Of a stretch of DNA of 64,000 nucleotides, positions 19,912 through 63,009 are shown in pieces. The notes under the pieces were generated by a model. That model was not told the DNA's origin, did no database searches, and was given only the letters and a program-made list of their open reading frames with translations. The stretch's first letter is position 1. The number at the start of each line of letters is the position of its first letter. Both the position numbers and the translations under genes were made by a program. Origin of the DNA: Octopus sinensis (lineage: Eukaryota); assembly GCF_006345805.1 (NCBI RefSeq), contig NC_043001.1, forward strand, positions 4,340,001 to 4,404,000, read 5' to 3'.

Positions 19912-19969
<58 letters not shown>

Positions 19970-20036
19970 CATAATATTATTATATATACCATATATATAT
20001 AATAATATATATAATATATATATATATATATACATA

Positions 20037-20084
<48 letters not shown>

Positions 20085-20192
20085 ATATATATACATATAT
20101 ATATATATAACAAAACTTACTTCGAGGAGATGAAACGAAACGAAAACGAATCGAATCGACGCGAGGGCGCTCAGTCTAATGCATATATATGT

Positions 20193-20225
<33 letters not shown>

Positions 20226-20230
<5 letters not shown>

Positions 20231-20780
20231 CATAAAAGTTGAAGCACCTCAAAGGGCAATCACAAAAAAGATAGATGGCATGACAGGCCTCGACTATTGG
20301 GGTCGACTAGAAAAGCTAAAACTCTATTCTCTCCAACGTCGTCGTGAGCGCTACATCATCTGCATGATGTGGAAAATATTCCATCAGCATTGCCCAAATG
20401 ATGTTGGCATCACCTTTAGGTACATCCAAGGCTTGGGCCCCGTGCCATCCGCCCAAAACAAAAATCGCACTCTCATCTCATAACAACAATACGGCACAAT
20501 ATTTCACCTCAATTGGCCCCGCTCTCTTAACATTACACCAAAACACATTAAAACAGAAACTGACCCTATAGGGGTCAAGAAGTCTTTGACAGATTCCTTC
20601 AAGAAATCCCGGATAAACCCCCTACACCCGGATATGTCTCTTTAAACAATAACTCTCTACTTGAGTGGGCCATAGTGCCCAAATTCTGACTGAAAGACTT
20701 CACCAGGTGGTGCTATTAAGTTAGACATGGCCTGGGCCAATAATGGCCGAAACTTATCAAAGTATCAAAGTATCAAAGTA
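20226..20780 (+). mobile_element. 5'-truncated CR1/L2-group LINE 3' end inserted in (TA)n
   Basis: [41 protein letters not shown]...KKSLDRFLQEIPDKP. 3' UTR hairpin atggcctgggccaataatggccgaaac, then an (aagtatca)n tail. Confidence 0.85.
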
Positions 20781-21207: not shown

Positions 21208-21406
21208 CTGTAGTAGTAGTTGTTGTTGTTGTTTTTGTAGTAGTAGTAGTAGTAGTAGTAGTAGTTATTGTTGTTGCTCTATATTTACGCATATATTGAA
21301 CTTGGTAAATTTCACTTCCTCCGCAAAAGTTGAAGACGCATTCCGTCTTTGTTCACATTAGTAAATTTGTTATTTCTCTATTTCCTTTGCTACTTTGCGC
21401 TATTCA

Positions 21407-21455
<49 letters not shown>

Positions 21456-21464
21456 CCTATCTAC

Positions 21465-21504
<40 letters not shown>

Positions 21505-21647
21505 ATCTATCTATCTATCTATCTATCTACCTATCTATCTGTCTATCTATCTATCTATATATCTATCTATCTATCTGCCTATCTATATATCTATCTATCG
21601 ATCTATCTATCGGTCTATTTATCTATCTATCTTTCTATCTATCTATC
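21407..21647. repeat. (TATC)n microsatellite
   Basis: Seen directly. Confidence 0.95.
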
Positions 21648-22470
21648 TGCCCGAGATGCGGGCAGAGCGACGAAACCGCTCTGCACGCAATCGTGCAGTG
21701 TCCAGCAATTTCCCACCTGTGGGCTTATGTCGAACGACTGCTGTCACGTGTGGGACGTGTCGGTTTATCAGCCGAGTCTATCGTTAATATCGTCACGCCT
21801 CCTTCCTTCAAACGGGAAGGAAGAGCTATTTTTATCATACTTGTGGCTATGGCGAAAGAATGTATCTGGTGGACGCGTCTGAAAGGATTAGAGACAAACA
21901 CTTTCCTCTCTGGTCAATCTCTCATCAACTTCTTCAAGTATCACTTGAAGAAAAAAGTGAGAGTAGAGAGGCAAGTTTTGTCTAGTGAATGTTTTAAAAA
22001 AAGATGGGTGAATGTAGCAAGGATGGCACGTATGAATGACGAAGCCACCTTGACTATGATTCTATGAACCGTAAAAATTAATACAGAGAGTTGCTTATTT
22101 GCAAAAAAAAAAAAAAGAAATATAACATGTGACTTCATTGACCGAGGTTACCGTGGTCTTTTCCGTAGGCTTTACTTTCCACGGGTAAACCTCACCTGTC
22201 CTCCCCTTTACACTTCATATTGACATTTCTGTGATAACGATCCCTATTGATCAATTTTTTTTTCCTCTCCCCCTTTTTTTAACCCCCCCTTTTTTTGTCC
22301 TCTTTCTCTCCTTTTACGATCCCTTTTGATCGACCCCCCCTTTTTTATTTTATTTTATTTTTTATTTTATTATTATTATTATTATCTTTTTTTTTTTACC
22401 TTCAAAAGAAAAGCTCTACCTTGTAATTTGTTCTATCTGTGTGCAGCCCTGTGTGGCTAATAAAGAAACA
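21648..22470 (+). mobile_element. 5'-truncated L1/Tx1-clade LINE: zf-RVT C-terminus (to 22067) and 3' UTR
   Basis: Open frame CPRCGQSDETALHAIVQC...IWWTR...stop at 22067. The 3' UTR has hairpins and a T-rich tract. AATAAA at 22459-22464 is followed by tatctctct. Confidence 0.85.
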
Positions 22471-35863: not shown

Positions 35864-38169
35864 TTAGTCAATTTAGGGTAGCAAAAAAATTCAATAGAAA
35901 TTTATCGCTACCAGCGGCCTGATGGAAAAGAGAAAATAGTCATCGACTAAATATATAAATATAACAATTTAGGAGTGACCCCAACAGGTCACTCGTCCAC
36001 CAGAAGAGCAGCCATAACTCACACCGCCAAGTAGTAGTAATTCAGAAATTAGGTGAAAATTTAAAAAACATTTACCCTAATTCATCTTTTAGACGTTGCA
36101 ACGTTTCTGTGTCATTAATGATCAAATTAGCTTAATTAAATTAAATTAAGCCAATCTACCATAGGTTACACTTCATCAGTAAAAGACCTGGGAGAGACAA
36201 ATATACACGAGGCGTCTGTATCGATGCCTACGGGATATCTGACTTAAAATTTTCAAGACTGACGTATTCGCGCCAAACTTATCAACAGTAAATATAAACT
36301 GCCGATTCAATCTCAGAATTATTCAGAAAATTATCAATTAGTCAATTTAGGGTAGCAAAAAAATTCAATAGAAATTTATCGCTACCAGCGGCCTGATGGA
36401 AAAGAGAAAATAGTCATCGACTAAATATATAAATATAACAATTAGGAGTGACCCCAACAGGTCACTCGTCCACCAGAAAGAGCAGCCATAACTCACACCG
36501 CCAAGTAGTAGTAATTCAGAATTAGGTGAAAATTTAAAAAAACATTTACCCTAATTCATCTTTTAGACGTTGCAACGTTTCTGTGTCATTAATGATCAAA
36601 TTAGCTTAATTAAATTAAATTAAGCCATCTACCATAGGTTACACTTCATCAGTAAAAGACCTGGGAGAGACAAATATACACGAGGCGTCTGTATCGATGC
36701 CTACGGGATATCTGACTTAAAATTTTCAAGACTGACGCATTCGCGCCAAACTTATCAACAGTAAATATAAACTGCCGATTCAATCTCAGAATTATTCAGA
36801 AAATTATCAATTAGTCAATTTAGGGTAGCAAAAAAATTCAATAGAAATTTATCGCTACCAGCGCCTGATGGAAAAGAGAAAATAATCATCGACTAAATAT
36901 ATAATATAACAATTTAGGAGTGACCCCAACAGGTCACTCGTCCACCAGAAAGAGCAGCCATAACTCACACACCGCCAAGTAGTAGTAATTCAGAAATTAG
37001 GTGAAAATTTAAAAAACATTTACCCTAATTCATCTTTTAGACGTTGCAACGTTTCTGTGTCATTAATGATCAAATTAGCTTAATTAAATTAAATTAAGCC
37101 AATCTACCATAGGTTACACTTCATCAGTAAAAGACCTGGGAGAGACAAATATACACGAGGCGTCTGTATCGATGCCTACGGGATATCTGACTTAAAATTT
37201 TCAAGACTGACGTATTCGCGCCAAACTTATCAACAGTAAATATAAACTGCCGATTCAATCTCAGAATTATTCAGAAAATTATCAATTAGTCAATTTAGGG
37301 TAGCAAAAAAATTCAATAGAAATTTATCGCTACCAGCGGCCTGATGGAAAAGAGAAAATAGTCATCGACTAAATATATAAATATAACAATTTAGGAGTGA
37401 CCCCAACAGGTCACTCGTCCACCAGAAGAGCAGCCATAACTCACACCGCCAAGTAGTAGTAATTCAGAAATTAGGTGAAAATTTAAAAAACATTTACCCT
37501 AATTCATCTTTTAGACGTTGCAACGTTTCTTCTTCTTTCTGTGTCATTAATGATCAAATTAGCTTAATTAAATTAAATTAAGCCAATCTACCATAGGTTA
37601 CACTTCATCAGTAAAAGACCTGGGAGAGACAAATATACACGAGGCGTCTGTATCGATGCCTACGGGATATCTGACTTAAAATTTTCAAGACTGACGTATT
37701 CGCGCCAAACTTATCAACAGTAAATATAAACTGCCGATTCAATCTCAGAATTATTCAGAAAATTATCAATTAGTCAATTTAGGGTAGCAAAAAAATTCAA
37801 TAGAAATTTATCGCTACCAGCGGCCTGATGGAAAAGAGAAAATAGTCATCGACTAAATATATAAATATAACAATTTAGGAGTGACCCCAACAGGTCACTC
37901 GTCCACCAGAAAGAGCAGCCATAACTCACACCGCCAAGTAGTAGTAATTCAGAAATTAGGTGAAAATTTAAAAAACATTTACCCTAATTCATCTTTTAGA
38001 CGTTGCAACGTTTCTGTGTCATTAATGATCAAATTAGCTTAATTAAATTAAATTAAGCCAATCTACCATAGGTTACACTTCATCAGTAAAAGACCTGGGA
38101 GAGACAAATATACACGAGGCGTCTGTATCGATGCCTACGGGATATCTGACTTAAAATTTTCAAGACTGA
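35864..38169 (-). repeat. Left arm of retrozyme-like array: ~4.9 tandem 474-bp units, HHR on minus strand
   Basis: Unit marker gtcaatttagggtagc at 35867, 36341, 36814, 37289 and 37773. HHRs at 36085-36186, 36559-36659, 37033-37134, 37507-37618 and 37992-38093. No ORF >=60 aa in the ORF track. Confidence 0.95.
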
Positions 38170-38194
38170 GAAAATAGAAAAAGAAAATAGTCAT

Positions 38195-41100
38195 CGTTGC
38201 AACGTCTAAAAGATGAATTAGGGTAAATGTTTTTTAAATTTTCACCTAATTTCTGAATTACTACTACTTGGCGGTGTGAGTTATGGCTGCTCTTTCTGGT
38301 GGACGAGTGACCTGTTGGGGTCACTCCTAAATTGTTATATTTATATATTTAGTCGATGACTATTTTCTCTTTTCCATCAGGCCGCTGGTAGCGATAAATT
38401 TCTATTGAATTTTTTTGCTACCCTAAATTGACTAATTGATAATTTTCTGAATAATTCTGAGATTGAATCGGCAGTTTATATTTACTGTTGATAAGTTTGG
38501 CGCGAATACGTCAGTCTTGAAAATTTTAAGTCAGATATCCCGTAGGCATCGATACAGACGCCTCGTGTATATTTGTCTCTCCCAGGTCTTTTACTGATGA
38601 AGTATAACCTATGGTAGATTGGCTTAATTTAATTTAATTAAGCTAATTTGATCATTAATGACACAGAAACGTTGCAACGTCTAAAAGATGAATTAGGGTA
38701 AATGTTTTTTAAATTTTCACCTAATTTCTGAATTACTACTACTTGGCGGTGTGAGTTATGGCTGCTCTTTCTGGTGGACGAGTGACCTGTTGGGGTCACT
38801 CCTAAATTGTTATATTTATATATTTAGTCGATGACTATTTTCTCTTTTCCATCAGGCCGCTGGTAGCGATAAATTTCTATTGAATTTTTTTGCTACCCTA
38901 AATTGACTAATTGATAATTTTCTGAATAATTCTGAGATTGAATCGGCAGTTTATATTTACTGTTGATAAGTTTGGCGCGAATACGTCAGTCTTGAAAATT
39001 TTAAGTCAGATATCCCGTAGGCATCGATACAGACGCCTCGTGTATATTTGTCTCTCCCAGGTCTTTTACTGATGAAGTGTAACCTATGGTAGATTGGCTG
39101 AATTTAATTTAATTAAGCTAATTGATCATTAATGACACAGAAACGTTGCAACGTCTAAAAGATGAATTAGGGTAAATGTTTTTTAAATTTTCACCTAATT
39201 TCTGAATTACTACTCCTTGGCGGTGTGAGTTATGGCTGCTCTTTCTGGTGGACGAGTGACCTGTTGGGGTCACTCCTAAATTGTTATATTTATATATTTA
39301 GTCGATGACTATTTTCTCTTTTCCATCAGGCCGCTGGTAGCGATAAATTTCTATTGAATTTTTTTGCTACCCTAAATTGACTAATTGATAATTTTCTGAA
39401 TAATTCTGAGATTGAATCGGCAGTTTATATTTACTGTTGATAAGTTTGGCGCGAATACGTCAGTCTTGAAAATTTTAAGTCAGATATCCCGTAGGCATCG
39501 ATACAGACGCCTCGTGTATATTTGTCTCTCCCAGGTCTTTTACTGATGAAGTGTAACCTATGGTAGATTGGCTTAATTTAATTTAATTAAGCTAATTGAT
39601 CATTAATGACACAGAAACGTTGCAACGTCTAAAAGATGAATTAGGGTAAATGTTTTTTAAATTTTCACCTAATTTCTGAATTACTACTACTTGGCGGTGT
39701 GAGTTATGGCTGCTCTTTCTGGTGGACGAGTGACCTGTTGGGGTCACTCCTAAATTGTTATATTTATATATTTAGTCGATGACTATTTTCTCTTTTCCAT
39801 CAGGCCGCTGGTAGCGATAATTTCTATTGAATTTTTTTGCTACCCTAAATTGACTAATTGATAATTTTCTGAATAATTCTGAGATTGAATCGGCAGTTTA
39901 TATTACTGTTGATAAGTTTGGCGCGAATACGTCAGTCTTGAAAATTTTAAGTCAGATATCCCGTAGGCATCGATACAGACGCCTCGTGTATATTTGTCTC
40001 TCCCAGGTCTTTTACTGATGAAGTGTAACCTATGGTAGATTGGCTTAATTTAATTTAATTAAGCTAATTTGATCATTAATGACACAGAAACGTTGCAACG
40101 TCTAAAAGATGAATTAGGGTAAATGTTTTTTTAAATTTTCACCTAATTTCTGAATTACTACTACTTGGCGGTGTGAGTTATGGCTGCTCTTTCTGGTGGA
40201 CGAGTGACCTGTTGGGTCACTCCTAAATTGTTATATTTATATATTTAGTCGATGACTATTTTCTCTTTTCCATCAGGCCGCTGGTAGCGATAAATTTCTA
40301 TTGACTTTTTTTGCTACCCTAAATTGACTAATTGATAATTTTCTGAATAATTCTGAGATTGAATCGGCAGTTTATATTTACTGTTGATAAGTTTGGCGCG
40401 AATACGTCAGTCTTGAAAATTTTAAGTCAGATATCCCGTAGGCATCGATACAGACGCCTCGTGTATATTTGTCTCTCCCAGGTCTTTTACTGATGAAGTG
40501 TAACCTATGGTAGATTGGCTTAATTTAATTTAATTAAGCTAATTTGATCATTAATGACACAGAAACGTTGCAACGTCTAAAAGATGAATTAGGGTAATGT
40601 TTTTTTAATTTTCACCTAATTTCTGAATTACTACTACTTGGCGGTGTGAGTTATGGCTGCTCTTTCTGGTGGACGAGTGACCTGTTGGGGTCACTCCTAA
40701 ATTGTTATATTTATATATTTAGTCGATGACTATTTTCTCTTTTCCATCAGGCCGCTGGTAGCGATAAATTTCTATTGAATTTTTTTGCTACCCTAAATTG
40801 ACTAATTGATAATTTTCTGAATAATTCTGAGATTGAATCGGCAGTTTATATTTACTGTTGATAAGTTTGGCGCGAATACGTCAGTCTTGAAAATTTTAAG
40901 TCAGATATCCCGTAGGCATCGATACAGACGCCTCGTGTATATTTGTCTCTCCCAGGTCTTTTACTGATGAAGTGTAACCTATGGTAGATTGGCTTAATTT
41001 ATTTAATTAAGCTAATTTGATCATTAATGACACAGAAACGTTGCAACGTCTAAAAGATGAATTAGGGTAAATGTTTTTTAAATTTTCACCTAATTTCTGA

Positions 41101-41652
41101 ATTACTACTACTTGGCGGTGTGAGTTATGGCTGCTCTTTCTGGTGGACGAGTGACCTGTTGGGGTCACTCCTAATTGTTATATTTATATATTTAGTCGAT
41201 GACTATTTTCTCTTTTCCATCAGGCCGCTGGTAGCGATAAATTTCTATTGAATTTTTTTGCTACCCTAAATTGACTAATTGATAATTTTCTGAATAATTC
41301 TGAGATTGAATCGGCAGTTTATATTTACTGTTGATAAGTTTGGCGCGAATACGTCAGTCTTGAAAATTTTAAGTCAGATATCCCGTAGGCATCGATACAG
41401 ACGCCTCGTGTATATTTGTCTCTCCCAGGTCTTTTACTGATGAAGTGTAACCTATGGTAGATTGGCTTAATTTAATTTAATTAAGCTAATTGATCATTAA
41501 TGACACAGAAACGTTGCAACGTCTAAAAGATGAATTAGGGTAAATGTTTTTTAAATTTTCACCTAATTTCTGAATTACTACTACTTGGCGGTGTGAGTTA
41601 TGGCTGCTCTTTCTGGTGGACGAGTGACCTGTTGGGGTCACTCCTAAATTGT

Positions 41653-41657
<5 letters not shown>
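38195..41657 (+). repeat. Right arm of retrozyme-like array: ~7.3 tandem 474-bp units, HHR on plus strand
   Basis: Predicted GTC cleavage triplets end at 38206 (partial HHR), 38681, 39155, 39629, 40102, 40577, 41050 and 41523, a spacing of 473-475 bp. The arm ends in (TA)n. Confidence 0.95.
38587..38688 (+). ncRNA. Type I hammerhead ribozyme (representative of 12 complete copies in the array)
   Basis: tctttta-CTGATGA-a-[long stem II; gtgt/acac in other copies, gtat here]-a-GAAAC-gttgcaac-GTC-taaaaga. Perfect 7-bp stem I, intact core, palindromic stem III acgttgcaacgt. Confidence 0.85.
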
Positions 41658-41674
<17 letters not shown>

Positions 41675-44267: not shown

Positions 44268-44752
44268 ATATAATAACAAAATAATAGATAAGACATATGC
44301 ATATATACATACATATATGTACTAGCTACATCTATATGTATATATACATGCATATATGGGTACAGGACACCAAAAAAACGTCGAACACAATAAGAAACGA
44401 AAACAAAACAAAACGAAGGACAGGGACATTTGTTTAAACAACGAAAAAATAGAGTACAAACATACAACACAAGGAAAATTCCCCTTATTCAGCCGCCTAA
44501 CACGGAGTAAGACGAAGCAGAGGCGGCTGAAGAAGGGGAATTTTCCTTGTGTTGTATGTTTGTACTCTGTTTTTTCGTTGTTTAAACAAATGTCCCTGTC
44601 CTTCGTTTTGTTTTGTTTTCGTTTCTTATTGTGTTCGACGTTTTTTTTGGTGTCCTGTACCCATATATGCATGTATATATACATATAGAGGTAGCTAGTA
44701 GATATACGTTTGTATATATGCATATGTTCTATCTATTATTTTGTTATTATAT
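44268..44752. repeat. ~230-bp near-perfect inverted repeat with 22-bp spacer
   Basis: Arms 44268-44498 and 44521-44752. ORFs 44322-44723(-) and 44356-44688(+) are mirror artefacts of it. Confidence 0.92.
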
Positions 44753-53129: not shown

Positions 53130-53186
53130 GATATATACATATAATATATATGTATATATATACATATCTAAATGTTTATATATATA

Positions 53187-53783
53187 CATTTCCAAATTTA
53201 TTCCTGTCGAATATTATCCGTTATTTTTGTTGTTTACAGAACCTAGCTGTTTTTTCTATTGTTTTGAATTTCACGCAAAGTGGAATTCTTATGTGTATAA
53301 ATATGCACTATATCGTATGACTAATATATAGTCTTCTTGACTAATTTTTGTGAACCTTAGACCATTGGAAATGTAAATTTTGATTGAATATTTTATTTTA
53401 ATTAAATTCCATTTCCCTTTGATATGATGAAACATTATAAGTTTCTTGATCATTTTCGGTTAAAGTTGGCGGTTTTTATTGTAGCCAGCGATTGGACAGC
53501 TTTTGTGCAGAAAAATTTGAAAAGTTAGTTCGTATGAACACGACACAAGTAGCGGTGTTTGTCTCGTGTTGTATATGTTTAACGCTAGGTTGCACCTTGC
53601 CGAAGAAGATCAGACCTTGCGAGTTCCCCCGACTTGCTAAAAGAAGATCAGAAACCAATTGGTCCGGGGTGCTAGATGGTAAATGTTTTTCATTTCAAAA
53701 TTTATTCCTGTCGAATTTTATCCGTTATTTTTGTGGTTTACAGAACCTAGCTGTTCTTTCTAATGTGTTGAATTTCACGCAAA
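53187..53783 (+). mobile_element. ~1.2-mer of a 504-bp hammerhead-bearing unit (93-bp terminal direct repeats)
   Basis: 53187-53279 is repeated at 53691-53783. HHR at 53592-53672. Flanked by (TA)n and (CA)n. Confidence 0.8.
53592..53672 (+). ncRNA. Type I hammerhead motif (CCGAAGA core variant)
   Basis: gcaccttg-CCGAAGA-a-gatc...gcgagt...acttgc...gatc-a-GAAAC-caattg-GTC-cggggtgc. 8-bp stem I with two GU pairs; palindromic stem III accaattggt. Confidence 0.75.
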
Positions 53784-54657: not shown

Positions 54658-55119
54658 AAAAAAAATGAGGGTGAAAAAATTGGATATTAATTTAATAACA
54701 TTAGTTTAACACCAAGTGGTTTAGCGCATAAAAACTGGGATACAGTAAAAATTAATACACAACGGAAATTTTGGCGCGCTATAACGAGGACATTCGAATC
54801 ATAACTGCAAATATAATAGACTGAACCACACGTGTGTTTGGCTTTATGTTAAAATCTAGCATGCGGTTCAATAAATTATATTCATGAGGAATTCTACTGA
54901 TGAGCTGTGGATCTATTATGTAAGTAACATTGCATAATCTATTAATAGTGAAACAATTGTCTAGAATTAATCTAAATTTTTGTTATTTTTCATTTGTCCT
55001 GCTCGTTTACGTTCATAGTTGTGCTAATTCTACTTGGCAACAATTCTTGGTGGTTGAGACTATAGCGGATCTATTTTTAGCGCAAGAACGTCCACATAGT
55101 GGACCCCCTCTTATATTTG
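54658..55119 (+). mobile_element. ~460-bp monomeric hammerhead-bearing element between (TA)n tracts; diverged relative of the array unit
   Basis: Contains HHR 54890-54968. Shares tttggcgcg upstream and cttgg.gg...gag..at.gc...tct plus a terminal hairpin downstream with the array unit. Confidence 0.7.
54890..54968 (+). ncRNA. Type I hammerhead ribozyme with canonical core
   Basis: aattcta-CTGATGA-gctgt..attatgta..tgcataat..atagt-GAAAC-aatt-GTC-tagaatt. Perfect 7-bp stem I; palindromic stem III acaattgt; predicted cleavage after 54961. Confidence 0.85.
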
Positions 55120-62294: not shown

Positions 62295-63009
62295 CTATAT
62301 ATATATTAATATATATATATATATCTATATATATATATATATATCAACCCGAGTTGATCACAGAACTGAGGCGACCCACGAAGCTACACAAAGAAGATAG
62401 CCTCTATGCAGAATGTAAGCTACTGGGAAAGACTCAAGAGATTAAAATTATATTCCCTGGAGCGTAGGCGGGAAAGATATGCCATAATATACATCTGGAA
62501 GATCCTGGAGGGAAGTGTCCTGAACTTTGGCATCGAGAGTTACGCAAATGCCAGAACTGGGCGCCACTGCTGGTGCCTAGGACTCCAAACCTGCCATCAA
62601 GATGTAGGACAAGATTCTGTGATAGCCTGGGCTTCGAGGCCCACAGCTCTTCAATATCCTCCCGAAGATCCTGAGAGACCTGCATGGGGTGGATACAGAT
62701 GTCTTAAAATGAAGCTGATCTCTTCCTCTCAGGTGTCCCAGATGAACCAACTTCACGGCAGGAGGGGCAGATGAGGGCAGCTGCATCGAACTCTCTCATG
62801 CCACCAAATAGCAGTTGCTAGAAAGCCTCATGAAGTGAAACCAGTAGCAACACCAAATGGCGGGGCCCAGCATGGCCACAGCTCATAAGCTGAAACTAGA
62901 ATCAATCAATCAATATCTATATATATCTATATATCTATATATATCTATATATATATATATATCTATATATATATATCTATATATATATCTATATATATAT
63001 ATATATATC

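Follow-up and report, generated by a model that had tools for sequence, protein, structure and literature searches.

Non-LTR retrozymes, as two sources describe them (PMC7229834; bioRxiv 10.64898/2026.07.22.740005), are non-coding tandem repeats, a few hundred bases long and low in G+C, which carry one type I hammerhead ribozyme per unit, reach thousands of motifs per genome and co-occur with Penelope-like elements (PLEs). Repeat lengths of 150-450 bp (PMC7229834) and 51-972 bp (Li et al., bioRxiv 10.64898/2026.07.22.740005) are given there, and circular RNA from such repeats was shown in coral, mussel and axolotl (PMC7229834). The minimal hammerheads of PLEs (PMC4209133) are also of type I, with a palindromic stem III, a dimer model, a helix II larger than usual and a purine A after A9; G10.1-C11.1 is retained in them, an extra base stands on one side, and helix III is all but missing (none, or 1-2 bp). 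In pseudoknotted hammerheads (PMC3088659; structure PMC11300833), a Watson-Crick pseudoknot between the sides of stem I and stem II replaces the non-canonical loop contacts; PMC3088659 predicts pseudoknots in about 40% of hammerheads and reports U10.1-U11.1. Finally, in the type III hammerheads that toad and termite HDV-like RNAs carry (PMC7936874), a short basal stem is joined to an internal loop, the 5' strand of which (GCCR) pairs with YGGC on the other arm, and to an extra capping hairpin.

The locus described here lies in a window of 64,000 nucleotides of Octopus sinensis (contig NC_043001.1) and has likenesses to all of these systems. A 474-bp repeat with a G+C content of about 0.35 forms two inverted arms inserted in (TA)n, with one hammerhead per unit and 12 copies in the window (Table 1). 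Among the window ORFs, none of at least 120 aa falls in the array beyond an overlap at its edge. The unit is slightly beyond the 150-450 bp range and within that of 51-972 bp, and by its sequence features the element is a non-autonomous, non-coding non-LTR retrozyme. Unlike the retrozymes in those descriptions, which have G-C or U-U at the base of helix II (U-U in the axolotl HHR_Amex2) and loop 1-loop 2 contacts, it has A-A, a stem II that spans 45-65 nt, a docking internal loop, a palindrome of 8-12 nt and a pair of inverted clonal arms whose 3' ends in (TA)n fall at two fixed points. The hammerhead has in common with those of PLEs the type I form, the palindromic stem III, the dimer model, the larger helix II and the A after A9, and the anatomy of the host element is PLE-type; it differs in that A faces A, a 4-bp helix III can form in the single copy and the unit is non-coding. 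The 12-fold repetition in the two-arm array was passed over in the earlier note on this DNA, as was the hammerhead with a paired G-U base at 54890-54968, for which a pseudoknot with the 3' flank is possible.

Table 1. Features of the 474-bp array and of the other hammerheads, in window coordinates (unit numbering: u1 = 38682)
Feature	Position	Strand	Remarks
Flagged type I hammerhead, with 5' pseudoknot strand	38584..38689	+	first complete plus-arm copy
Predicted pseudoknot 5' flank strand AGGT	38584..38587	+	pairs with stem II internal-loop ACCT; covariation
Stem I, 5' strand	38586..38593	+	partner 38682-38689
Core C3-A9, CTGATGA	38594..38600	+	columns invariant among aligned relatives
A10.1	38601	+	faces A11.1 at 38665
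Basal stem II, 5' strand	38602..38605	+	partner ACAC 38661-38664
Pseudoknot partner ACCT, 5' strand of stem II internal loop	38607..38610	+	predicted
Distal AU-rich hairpin of stem II	38611..38655	+	19 bp, one bulge
A11.1 and core G12 A13 A14 A15.1	38665..38669	+	read in sequence
12-nt palindrome	38669..38680	+	monomer: 4-bp hairpin; two copies: 12-bp helix
Predicted cleavage site, after C17 at 38681	38681..38682	+	established hammerhead numbering
Plus arm, 7.3 unit copies (474 bp each)	38195..41665	+	7 hammerheads
Plus-arm hammerheads	38586, 39061, 39535, 40007, 40482, 40956, 41429	+	
Minus arm, 4.8 unit copies (474 bp each)	35864..38169	-	5 hammerheads
Minus-arm hammerheads	37991-38094, 37506-37619, 37032-37135, 36558-36660, 36084-36187	-	
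Head-to-head junction of two 5'-truncated arms	38170..38194	.	filled with short unit pieces
Second A-A hammerhead, related but separate lineage	53587..53672	+	core CCGAAGA
Third long-stem-II hammerhead, G-U at 10.1-11.1	54890..54968	+	8-nt palindrome

The flagged motif contains C3 U4 G5 A6 N7 G8 A9 / G12 A13 A14, A15.1-U16.1 and H17, with GAAA at 38666-38669 and the triplet GTC at 38679-38681, and its three helices, helix I being open, are backed by covariation. The intact CUGAUGA/GAAAC/GUC core, the 7-bp stem I, the A-A at the base of stem II and the 12-nt palindromic stem III proposed in the earlier note are all present at this site, stem I having seven Watson-Crick pairs plus one G-U. The consensus pair R10.1-Y11.1 is absent, with A opposite A in 12 of 12 window copies. 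R10.1-Y11.1 is a consensus feature with published exceptions (U-U), and the motif is classified from its letters as a type I hammerhead variant. With a strict descriptor the window yields 14 matches and each of 60 order-2 Markov resamplings yields none, which argues against a chance motif. No Rfam hammerhead appeared among the 150 of 173 rows listed for the window, which held AT-repeat microRNA noise only, nor at E <= 10 for two short stretches. The 65 nt from A9 to G12 in the flagged copy had been taken for one long stem with gtgt/acac at its base; they fold instead as a 4-bp basal stem, a 5x5 internal loop and a 19-bp AU-rich hairpin, the last varying freely in length and sequence among families. 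The basal 5' strand reads GTAT in this copy, which creates an A-C mismatch opposite ACAC, and GTGT in the other 11 of the 12.

None of the 25 aligned relatives departs from the core, the unpaired C17 and the GUH triplet included; 15 of 18 pairs show two-sided changes, and 86.6% of the cells in this alignment are paired against 64.6% in shuffles (slid controls 32-42%). A pseudoknot between the flank of stem I and the internal loop of stem II is predicted, and covariation is present. In 42 motif types the best helix between the 5' flank and loop II has a mean score of 9.8 against 8.0 +/- 0.3 (maximum 9.07) in 2000 shuffles. The 25 and the 42 rows are both related, hand-picked sequences, so that the shuffle counts are no probabilities. 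The register is nearly constant while the sequences differ (AGGU/ACCU, CUGGC/GCCAG, CUAGGU/ACCUAG), and later-fetched families agree (CAGGG/CCCUG, AAGGC/GCCUU, AGGUU/AACCU); in fixed columns just 70% of the cells pair, because the register slips by one. Several families among the motif types and later families compared lack the helix. In the flagged copy the last two letters of AGGT could alternatively extend stem I, and the second A-A hammerhead places AGGT at 53587-53590 opposite ACCT at 53614-53617, with a GATC/GATC stem and a 10-nt palindrome. The earlier note did not see this pseudoknot. In contrast to published pseudoknotted hammerheads, the docking site here is an internal loop within a long stem II, which pairs through its 5' strand; some families use the 5' flank of stem I for this and others the 3' flank. 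The toad and termite arrangement is its mirror image, with helix I long in a type III ribozyme there and helix II in a type I ribozyme here; one lineage here pairs GCCAG with CUGGC.

Stem III is self-complementary in its central 4 nt in 31 of 38 even-length types, where chance would give 1 in 16. For a transcript of two copies, folding predicts the double-hammerhead helix as the ground state, with inter-copy stem III pair probabilities of 0.76-1.0 in tandem RNA and a cofold minimum of -69.7 versus 2 x -27.5 kcal/mol, in line with the earlier suggestion that the palindrome enables double hammerheads in tandem repeats. In a pseudoknot-free model, the active monomer fold lies 0.7 kcal/mol above the minimum and makes up about 5% of the ensemble; in the circular monomer, the ribozyme's stems I and III reach an occupancy of just 2-4%. 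The models thus predict that the double hammerhead is favoured in tandem RNA and leave monomer cleavage possible. Eight of nine predicted frog retrozyme dimers showed no cleavage in vitro, according to bioRxiv 10.64898/2026.07.22.740005.

The long stem II, the A-A and the palindrome were originally read as one distinct subtype that may cleave efficiently only as a multimer. The three traits do stand together at 38586 and 53592, the double-hammerhead fold is predicted, and palindromes are retained across families. They are nevertheless separable in the genome: a long stem II with a palindromic stem III has a G-C base in 8,329 matches (163 in the control) and an A-A base in 1,087 (22 in the control), which makes this architecture the genome norm and not a trait of A-A. 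A-A with a short stem II gave 2,039 matches against 98, and A-A with a non-palindromic stem III was found in a few viral contigs; the viral scan returned at least 120 matches, and 114 of the 120 listed lacked stems and were taken as chance. In addition, the A-A rows form no single clade, a 4-bp stem III is possible in the monomer, whose active fold lies no more than 0.7 kcal/mol from the minimum, and most invertebrate retrozyme hammerheads cleave as monomers according to PMC7761336. A distinct, multimer-only subtype is therefore quite unlikely. Another idea, that A-A requires a long stem II or a pseudoknot, was given up as well, since A-A also occurs with short stems II and the families L169-L171 have no such helix.

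The history of the position points in the same direction. Close relatives of the 474-bp family with equal length carry G-C, G-U or A-U at exactly 10.1-11.1, and A-A is nested among them, with six changes on a 29-row tree; a single clade of mismatched rows is rejected (p-AU 6e-58), and the two window motifs at 38586 and 53592 belong to separate lineages. Within a four-row A-A clade (support 100/97), two-sided changes affect the palindrome as well as stem II (GUGU/ACAC to GCGU/ACGC), which indicates that the fold was kept after A-A had been fixed. The proposal that A-A arose as two bases inserted around a canonical G-C was abandoned, as sister sequences show substitution and not insertion. The A-A recurs at 53592-53672 as the earlier note had observed, with the core CCGAAGA. 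Its view that the A-A is conserved rather than decayed holds in part: the family is young and widely amplified, with A-A fixed, the core invariant and the stems covarying, which speaks against decay, whereas 10.1-11.1 is paired in 9 of the 25 aligned relatives, so that invariance does not stand. A-A turns up in many separate repeat families of the genome, and among the sequences compared it is recurrent and tolerated, not invariant.

It could be argued that no mismatch exists and that the adjoining G-C is the true G10.1-C11.1, with the extra base of PLEs after A9 and a second extra A before G12. The PLE consensus CUGANGAH G...C GAAA fits this idea, one of 56 core cells reads AGAAA (PMC4209133 supplement), and a G-C comes next in 24 of 25 aligned rows, most of which were found with a pattern that fixes G-C. 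The equal-length relatives with pairs at exactly both positions tell against it, however, as do the matches in which A-A precedes U-A, A-U or C-G (1,461 versus 700 in the control), which lie in amplifying families; this reading is highly improbable. According to PMC3088659, only 15.1-16.1 is a more conserved pair than 10.1-11.1, and the mismatch best tolerated there is reportedly U-U, so that A-A should lower activity. In our reading the position is relaxed and A-A is one of the states it tolerates, perhaps at the cost of a lower rate; it does not define a class of its own. A literature search on A-A at 10.1-11.1 returned nothing relevant, and published alignments or supplements may already show A-A or the architecture. 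The contigs X2 (record 17) and X7 (record 25), from organisms A and C, span both A positions and have no other letter there.

The element was found in 45 of 47 genome stretches examined, and the insertions share a defined anatomy. In the window, the plus arm ends near u140 and the minus arm at u229, both running into (TA)n. In 29 of the 32 two-armed insertions one arm stops at u140-146 and its counterpart at u228-242, and all 13 one-armed insertions end in one of these classes. The flanks are (TA)n, which masks any target-site duplication at both sides. A related 397-bp family forms tandem arrays of up to about 27 units. In 27 insertions with at least three copies, 112 variant sites are common to all copies, 10 to some and 111 to a single copy: each insertion is a clone of one monomer. 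The clonal insertions and the two fixed 3' ends fit a Penelope-like enzyme that copies a circular RNA template, and hence, indirectly, cleavage in vivo; clonality is also compatible with the copying of a homogeneous multimer transcript.

Array growth at the DNA level, by satellite slippage or unequal crossing-over and with no RNA circle, would likewise make copies alike through homogenisation, and the arrays of the 397-bp family are long. Yet the inverted arms carry identical variants even in short insertions, these are dispersed over many contigs, and two fixed 3' ends combined with random 5' ends in (TA)n are what target-primed reverse transcription leaves behind, so that we give this explanation very little credence. 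A further alternative holds that A-A largely inactivates the ribozyme, that the element spreads via uncleaved read-through multimers and that the motif survives as a fold for protein binding or packaging. The arms traverse up to nine cleavage sites and do not start there: the 5' truncation points show no enrichment, with 6 of 73 in u1-20 where 3.1 are expected (P = 0.09; the 73 arm starts omit L011, the 33-bp middle piece of L020 and the aberrant plus arms of L022 and L025). The expected loss of activity points the same way, C-A and A-C states are likewise present in multi-copy families, and many PLE and retrozyme motifs are reported with low or no activity. Against it stand the invariant catalytic letters, unpaired C17 and the GUH triplet among them, and the clonal insertions, in which fixed haplotypes are many and partly shared variants few, suggesting a monomer bottleneck; this alternative seems unlikely.

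The reading we favour, which we hold to be probable with some reserve, is that of a 474-bp retrozyme whose A-A type I hammerhead is predicted to be pseudoknotted and would cleave after GUC, and whose circle would be copied by a Penelope-like reverse transcriptase. By analogy with known retrozymes and PLEs, tandem 474-bp units would be transcribed. Cleavage after GUC would proceed best as the predicted double hammerhead of neighbouring units, and probably also slowly in the single unit. The released monomer would then be ligated into a circle by a host ligase, as in the known systems, and a reverse transcriptase, presumably of a Penelope-like helper element, would copy the circle by the rolling-circle mode into (TA)n sites. 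Contigs X1, X3, X5, X9, X2, X7, X13 and the unclassified X16 cover the unit, in runs only guessed to be RNA. X3 (record 9) and X5 (record 12) bridge the cleavage site, contigs of a kind that cannot separate circle, read-through RNA and DNA. Some contigs extend into the (TA)n flanks and none ends at the cleavage site, their RNA origin being a guess.

As to the putative helper, the insertions show the PLE traits given in PMC8557442, namely tandem and inverted 5'-truncated copies, a tail at one end and (TA)n targets, although the two 3' ends differ by about 89 nt here versus the 30-40 nt described for PLEs. The genome contains ORFs of 775-883 aa with a reverse transcriptase (RT) and, at the C terminus, a GIY-YIG domain, one family of which ends in (TA)n; the 474-bp element itself has no RT or GIY-YIG ORF. 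Of 5,029 candidates 150 were scored, and 20 GIY-YIG loci were compared with the unit, with no blastn match at E <= 0.001 and no unit copy adjoining a PLE reading frame at the loci examined. In the intact RT-GIY-YIG family with the most copies, the 1.1 kb that separate the stop from the (TA)n end contain no hammerhead core; the 3' part of a second family contains a small U-U motif. Neither family was found linked to the 474-bp unit.

If A-A hammerheads cleave, descriptors and models that demand R10.1-Y11.1 overlook a sizeable natural class, with about 3,800 above-control matches in this genome (overlapping patterns not de-duplicated) and a few viral ones. The family also offers a natural series of G-C, G-U, A-U and A-A in one background for measuring the role of 10.1-11.1. 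In a review (PMC7761336), non-LTR retrozyme repeats are said to have no conserved motif that indicates a helper; the insertion anatomy bears on this mobilisation, in that two fixed 3' ends, the (TA)n target and clonality are testable PLE-type signals. A wider reading, tentative and on balance doubtful, is that the genome holds thousands of working, uncatalogued hammerheads invisible to Rfam, in which the docked pseudoknot and the self-pairing stem III free 10.1-11.1; A-A would have been selected again and again for tuning the ribozyme towards cleavage of nascent multimers and away from the circle, and the two-armed clonal insertions with their two fixed priming points would reflect Penelope copying circular RNA from both target strands, with a hairpin followed by CUAAAUUG as signals. 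Should this be true, these signals would be what is needed to rebuild retrozyme transposition.

The flagged type I hammerhead reads, in order, stem I, CTGATGA, 65 nt, GAAA, palindrome and GTC, which is the layout of core, stems and palindrome described in the earlier note. A descriptor of the core and seven stem I pairs matched 14 times in the window and never across 60 resampled windows; Rfam showed no hammerhead family among the 150 of 173 matches listed for the window, nor at E <= 10 on two short stretches. The gtgt/acac base previously ascribed to stem II does not apply to the flagged copy, which has GTAT and is the only copy to differ from GTGT. Between A9 and G12, folding predicts a basal stem of 4 bp that opens into a 5x5 internal loop and is topped by a hairpin of 19 bp. 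A U4-to-C core variant (CCGA) is frequent in the genome, including multi-copy arrays, and also occurs in the fetched loci L101 and L174.

Coordinates of the hammerhead motifs, the 474-bp repeat and neighboring features in the window
Feature	Position	Strand	Remarks
Flagged hammerhead	38586-38689		
Hammerhead copies in 474-bp repeat	both inverted blocks		12 of 14 descriptor matches
Hammerhead matches outside 474-bp repeat	53592 and 54890		remaining descriptor matches
Minus block of 474-bp repeat	35864-38169	-	ends in (TA)n
Plus block of 474-bp repeat	38195-41665	+	ends in (TA)n
Slipped hammerhead copy	37506-37619	-	slip of 10 bases after stem II, ahead of GAAA; probably inactive
CCGA core variant	53600-53606		
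Diverged direct repeat	53170-53280 and 53680-53783		~510 bp apart; flanks 53592 hammerhead, ends in (CA)n; locus probably an older 1.2-unit retrozyme insertion
Long inverted repeat	44322-44688		opposite-strand frames translate nearly alike; possibly a foldback element
Fragments	19950-20483, 21309-22067, 62370-62774		by eye, taken to resemble LINE-type retrotransposon reading frames

The A-A at the base of stem II (38601/38665) was numbered in the earlier note as a substitution at 10.1-11.1, and equal-length relatives paired at exactly these positions settle the matter: G-C in L101-L103, A-U in L104 and G-U in L105. Further states seen are A-C, C-A and A-G. A 29-row tree was built from 23 picked rows (the window copy replacing L081), five rows from families fetched later and the 53592 motif. 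The two letters of the trait itself were masked, and families that lack a pseudoknot with the 5' flank were excluded because they do not align. In this tree, the window family's A-A clade (support 100/97) is nested among paired rows with an A-U row as sister; placing all mismatched rows in one clade is rejected (p-AU 6e-58). A-A costs six changes; outside that clade, gain and return look alike in this unrooted tree. An earlier 23-row tree agrees. The position is relaxed, A-A being the commonest unpaired state among those searched. The proposal that A-A is conserved rather than decayed stands in its second half: the 15 columns invariant in 25 rows include the whole core, stems covary among aligned relatives, and two-sided changes occur inside the A-A clade, which together argue against decay. 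A-A may be tolerated because A10.1 presumably still offers a purine N7 to the metal bound at A9/10.1, and a stable basal stem with the pseudoknot described below may replace the closing pair; C-A families show that not even this holds strictly.

In both A-A motifs of the window, the AGGT that immediately precedes stem I is the reverse complement of an ACCT on the 5' side of the internal loop. The best flank-loop helix averages 9.8 over 42 motif types, against 8.0 +/- 0.3 when shuffled. Within the window family's lineage, the sequence of the helix varies and its place does not: one strand lies 6-7 nt ahead of C3, the other 5-6 nt inside stem II. Families fetched later fit. In other families, the loop strand pairs with the 3' flank instead (UGACCA/UGGUUA, UGACU/AGUCA, AACUU/AAGUU); neither helix was found in some, including the commonest G-C family. 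Pseudoknots of such a role are known and were shown to increase rates 10- to 100-fold (PMC3088659), and the HDV-like type III motifs of PMC7936874 have the mirror-image architecture, on helix I rather than stem II.

Long stem II, A-A and palindrome had been proposed to form one subtype, a grouping that genome-wide pattern counts do not support. Both strands were counted with the reversed pattern as control, the first 100 matches of each pattern being listed and the counts being of copies, hence array-inflated. G10.1...C11.1 with 35-65 nt between gave 8,329 matches (control 163), A-G...C-A 1,087 (22), N-G...C-(not A), which overlaps the first set, 1,105 (118), (not A)-G...C-A 211 (53), A-(not G)...A 1,461 (700), and A-G...C-A with short stem II 2,039 (98). 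Palindromic stem III and long stem II are therefore the norm in this genome, and the occurrence of A-A depends neither on how long stem II is nor on the adjoining pair. Among 120 matches listed in viral contigs, six (L191, L244, L266, L270, L275, L288) have proper stems I and II plus A-A; in such viral type I hammerhead-like motifs, stem II is short and stem III mostly non-palindromic. A separate array of about 27 units (L161-L162, G000:C1:118347244-118358254) holds a 397-400 bp A-A retrozyme with basal stem UUCU/AGAA, its mismatch lacking an adjoining G-C, and pseudoknot CAGGG/CCCUG.

Of 38 even-length types, 31 have a self-complementary tetranucleotide at the center of stem III, a feature that a monomer hairpin does not need. 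The suggestion that the palindrome permits a dimeric double hammerhead is borne out in the predicted fold of a two-copy transcript, where inter-copy palindrome pairing reaches 0.76-1.0 and stem I across copies ~0.95. Folded without the pseudoknot, which would favor the active fold, an isolated copy has that fold +0.7 kcal/mol over the minimum (~5% of the ensemble), and a circular monomer has stems I and III at 2-4%. The best reading of these models is a ribozyme that would be efficient as a double hammerhead and muted in the circle.

A 131-bp query of the genome (2.72 Gb, 13,516 contigs) returned 1,365 candidates, nearly all of the 40 scored having 98-100% identity, and the element was present in 45 of 47 stretches examined. 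Two head-to-head arms occur in 32 insertions. In 29 of these (exceptions L022, L023, L025), one arm ends at ~u140-146, a figure that takes in a few bases of chance (TA)n match, and the other at ~u228-242, counted from the first base after the predicted cut. All 13 one-armed insertions end in one of these two 3' classes; 5' ends are scattered and (TA)n lies at the flanks. Both fixed 3' ends (window 35864 and ~41660; L011-L029, L081-L100) are preceded by CTAAATTG and a stable hairpin. This hairpin/CTAAATTG motif occurs twice per unit, 89 nt apart, and may be the priming signal for the two target strands. Fixed ends are also found in related families; those of the 487-, 534- and G-C 474-bp families fall into two classes. 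Across 27 insertions with at least three copies, 112 variant sites are in every copy, usually in both arms, and 10 in some; the 111 in one copy include assembly errors. Each insertion was therefore copied repeatedly from one monomer sequence, in many turns around it. Such clonality is expected from a circular template; a perfectly homogeneous multimer transcript would yield the same.

The element has no coding capacity. The genome carries intact RT and GIY-YIG frames with a CxxxxCxxC motif ahead of the nuclease, which by PMC8557442 points to the Neptune or Nematis type of Penelope-like element (PLE); the same paper gives inverted 5'-truncated copies, a one-end tail and (TA)n targets as PLE traits. 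No sequence link between these frames and the 474-bp unit was found, including by blastn at E <= 0.001 against 20 GIY-YIG loci. With its non-coding unit, PLE-like insertion anatomy and PLE frames unlinked in sequence, the element is filed as a non-LTR retrozyme; the authors of bioRxiv 10.64898/2026.07.22.740005 argue that retrozymes derive from PLEs. One intact Penelope-like element (L142) has in its 3' part, ~510 nt past the RT-GIY-YIG stop, a small motif that resembles a hammerhead, with U-U in place of the 10.1-11.1 pair and the palindrome AGUACU. In the commonest intact family (L144, L148, L149), the RT frame is preceded by a second frame of at most 479 aa, and the 3' part has no hammerhead core.

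Earlier publications describe palindromic stem III with dimer cleavage, a larger helix II and an association with PLEs (PMC4209133, PMC6765202, PMC6466107), as well as U-U at 10.1-11.1, in a natural variant (PMC3088659) and axolotl retrozymes (PMC7229834). No description of A10.1-A11.1, or of a type I hammerhead whose stem II has a docking internal loop, was found in the literature searched, some key papers and supplements lying outside its coverage. In the PLE alignment of the PMC4209133 supplement, a single core cell out of 56 reads AGAAA, in a row unassignable from the text, and is possibly an unremarked precedent. The motif is a real variant of a known ribozyme, probably functional judging by its sequence, and sits in an element of a known kind; the A-A hammerhead is less of a separate subtype than the earlier note proposed. 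Two things of value are added: the predicted pseudoknot, and insertions that are clonal and have two fixed ends.
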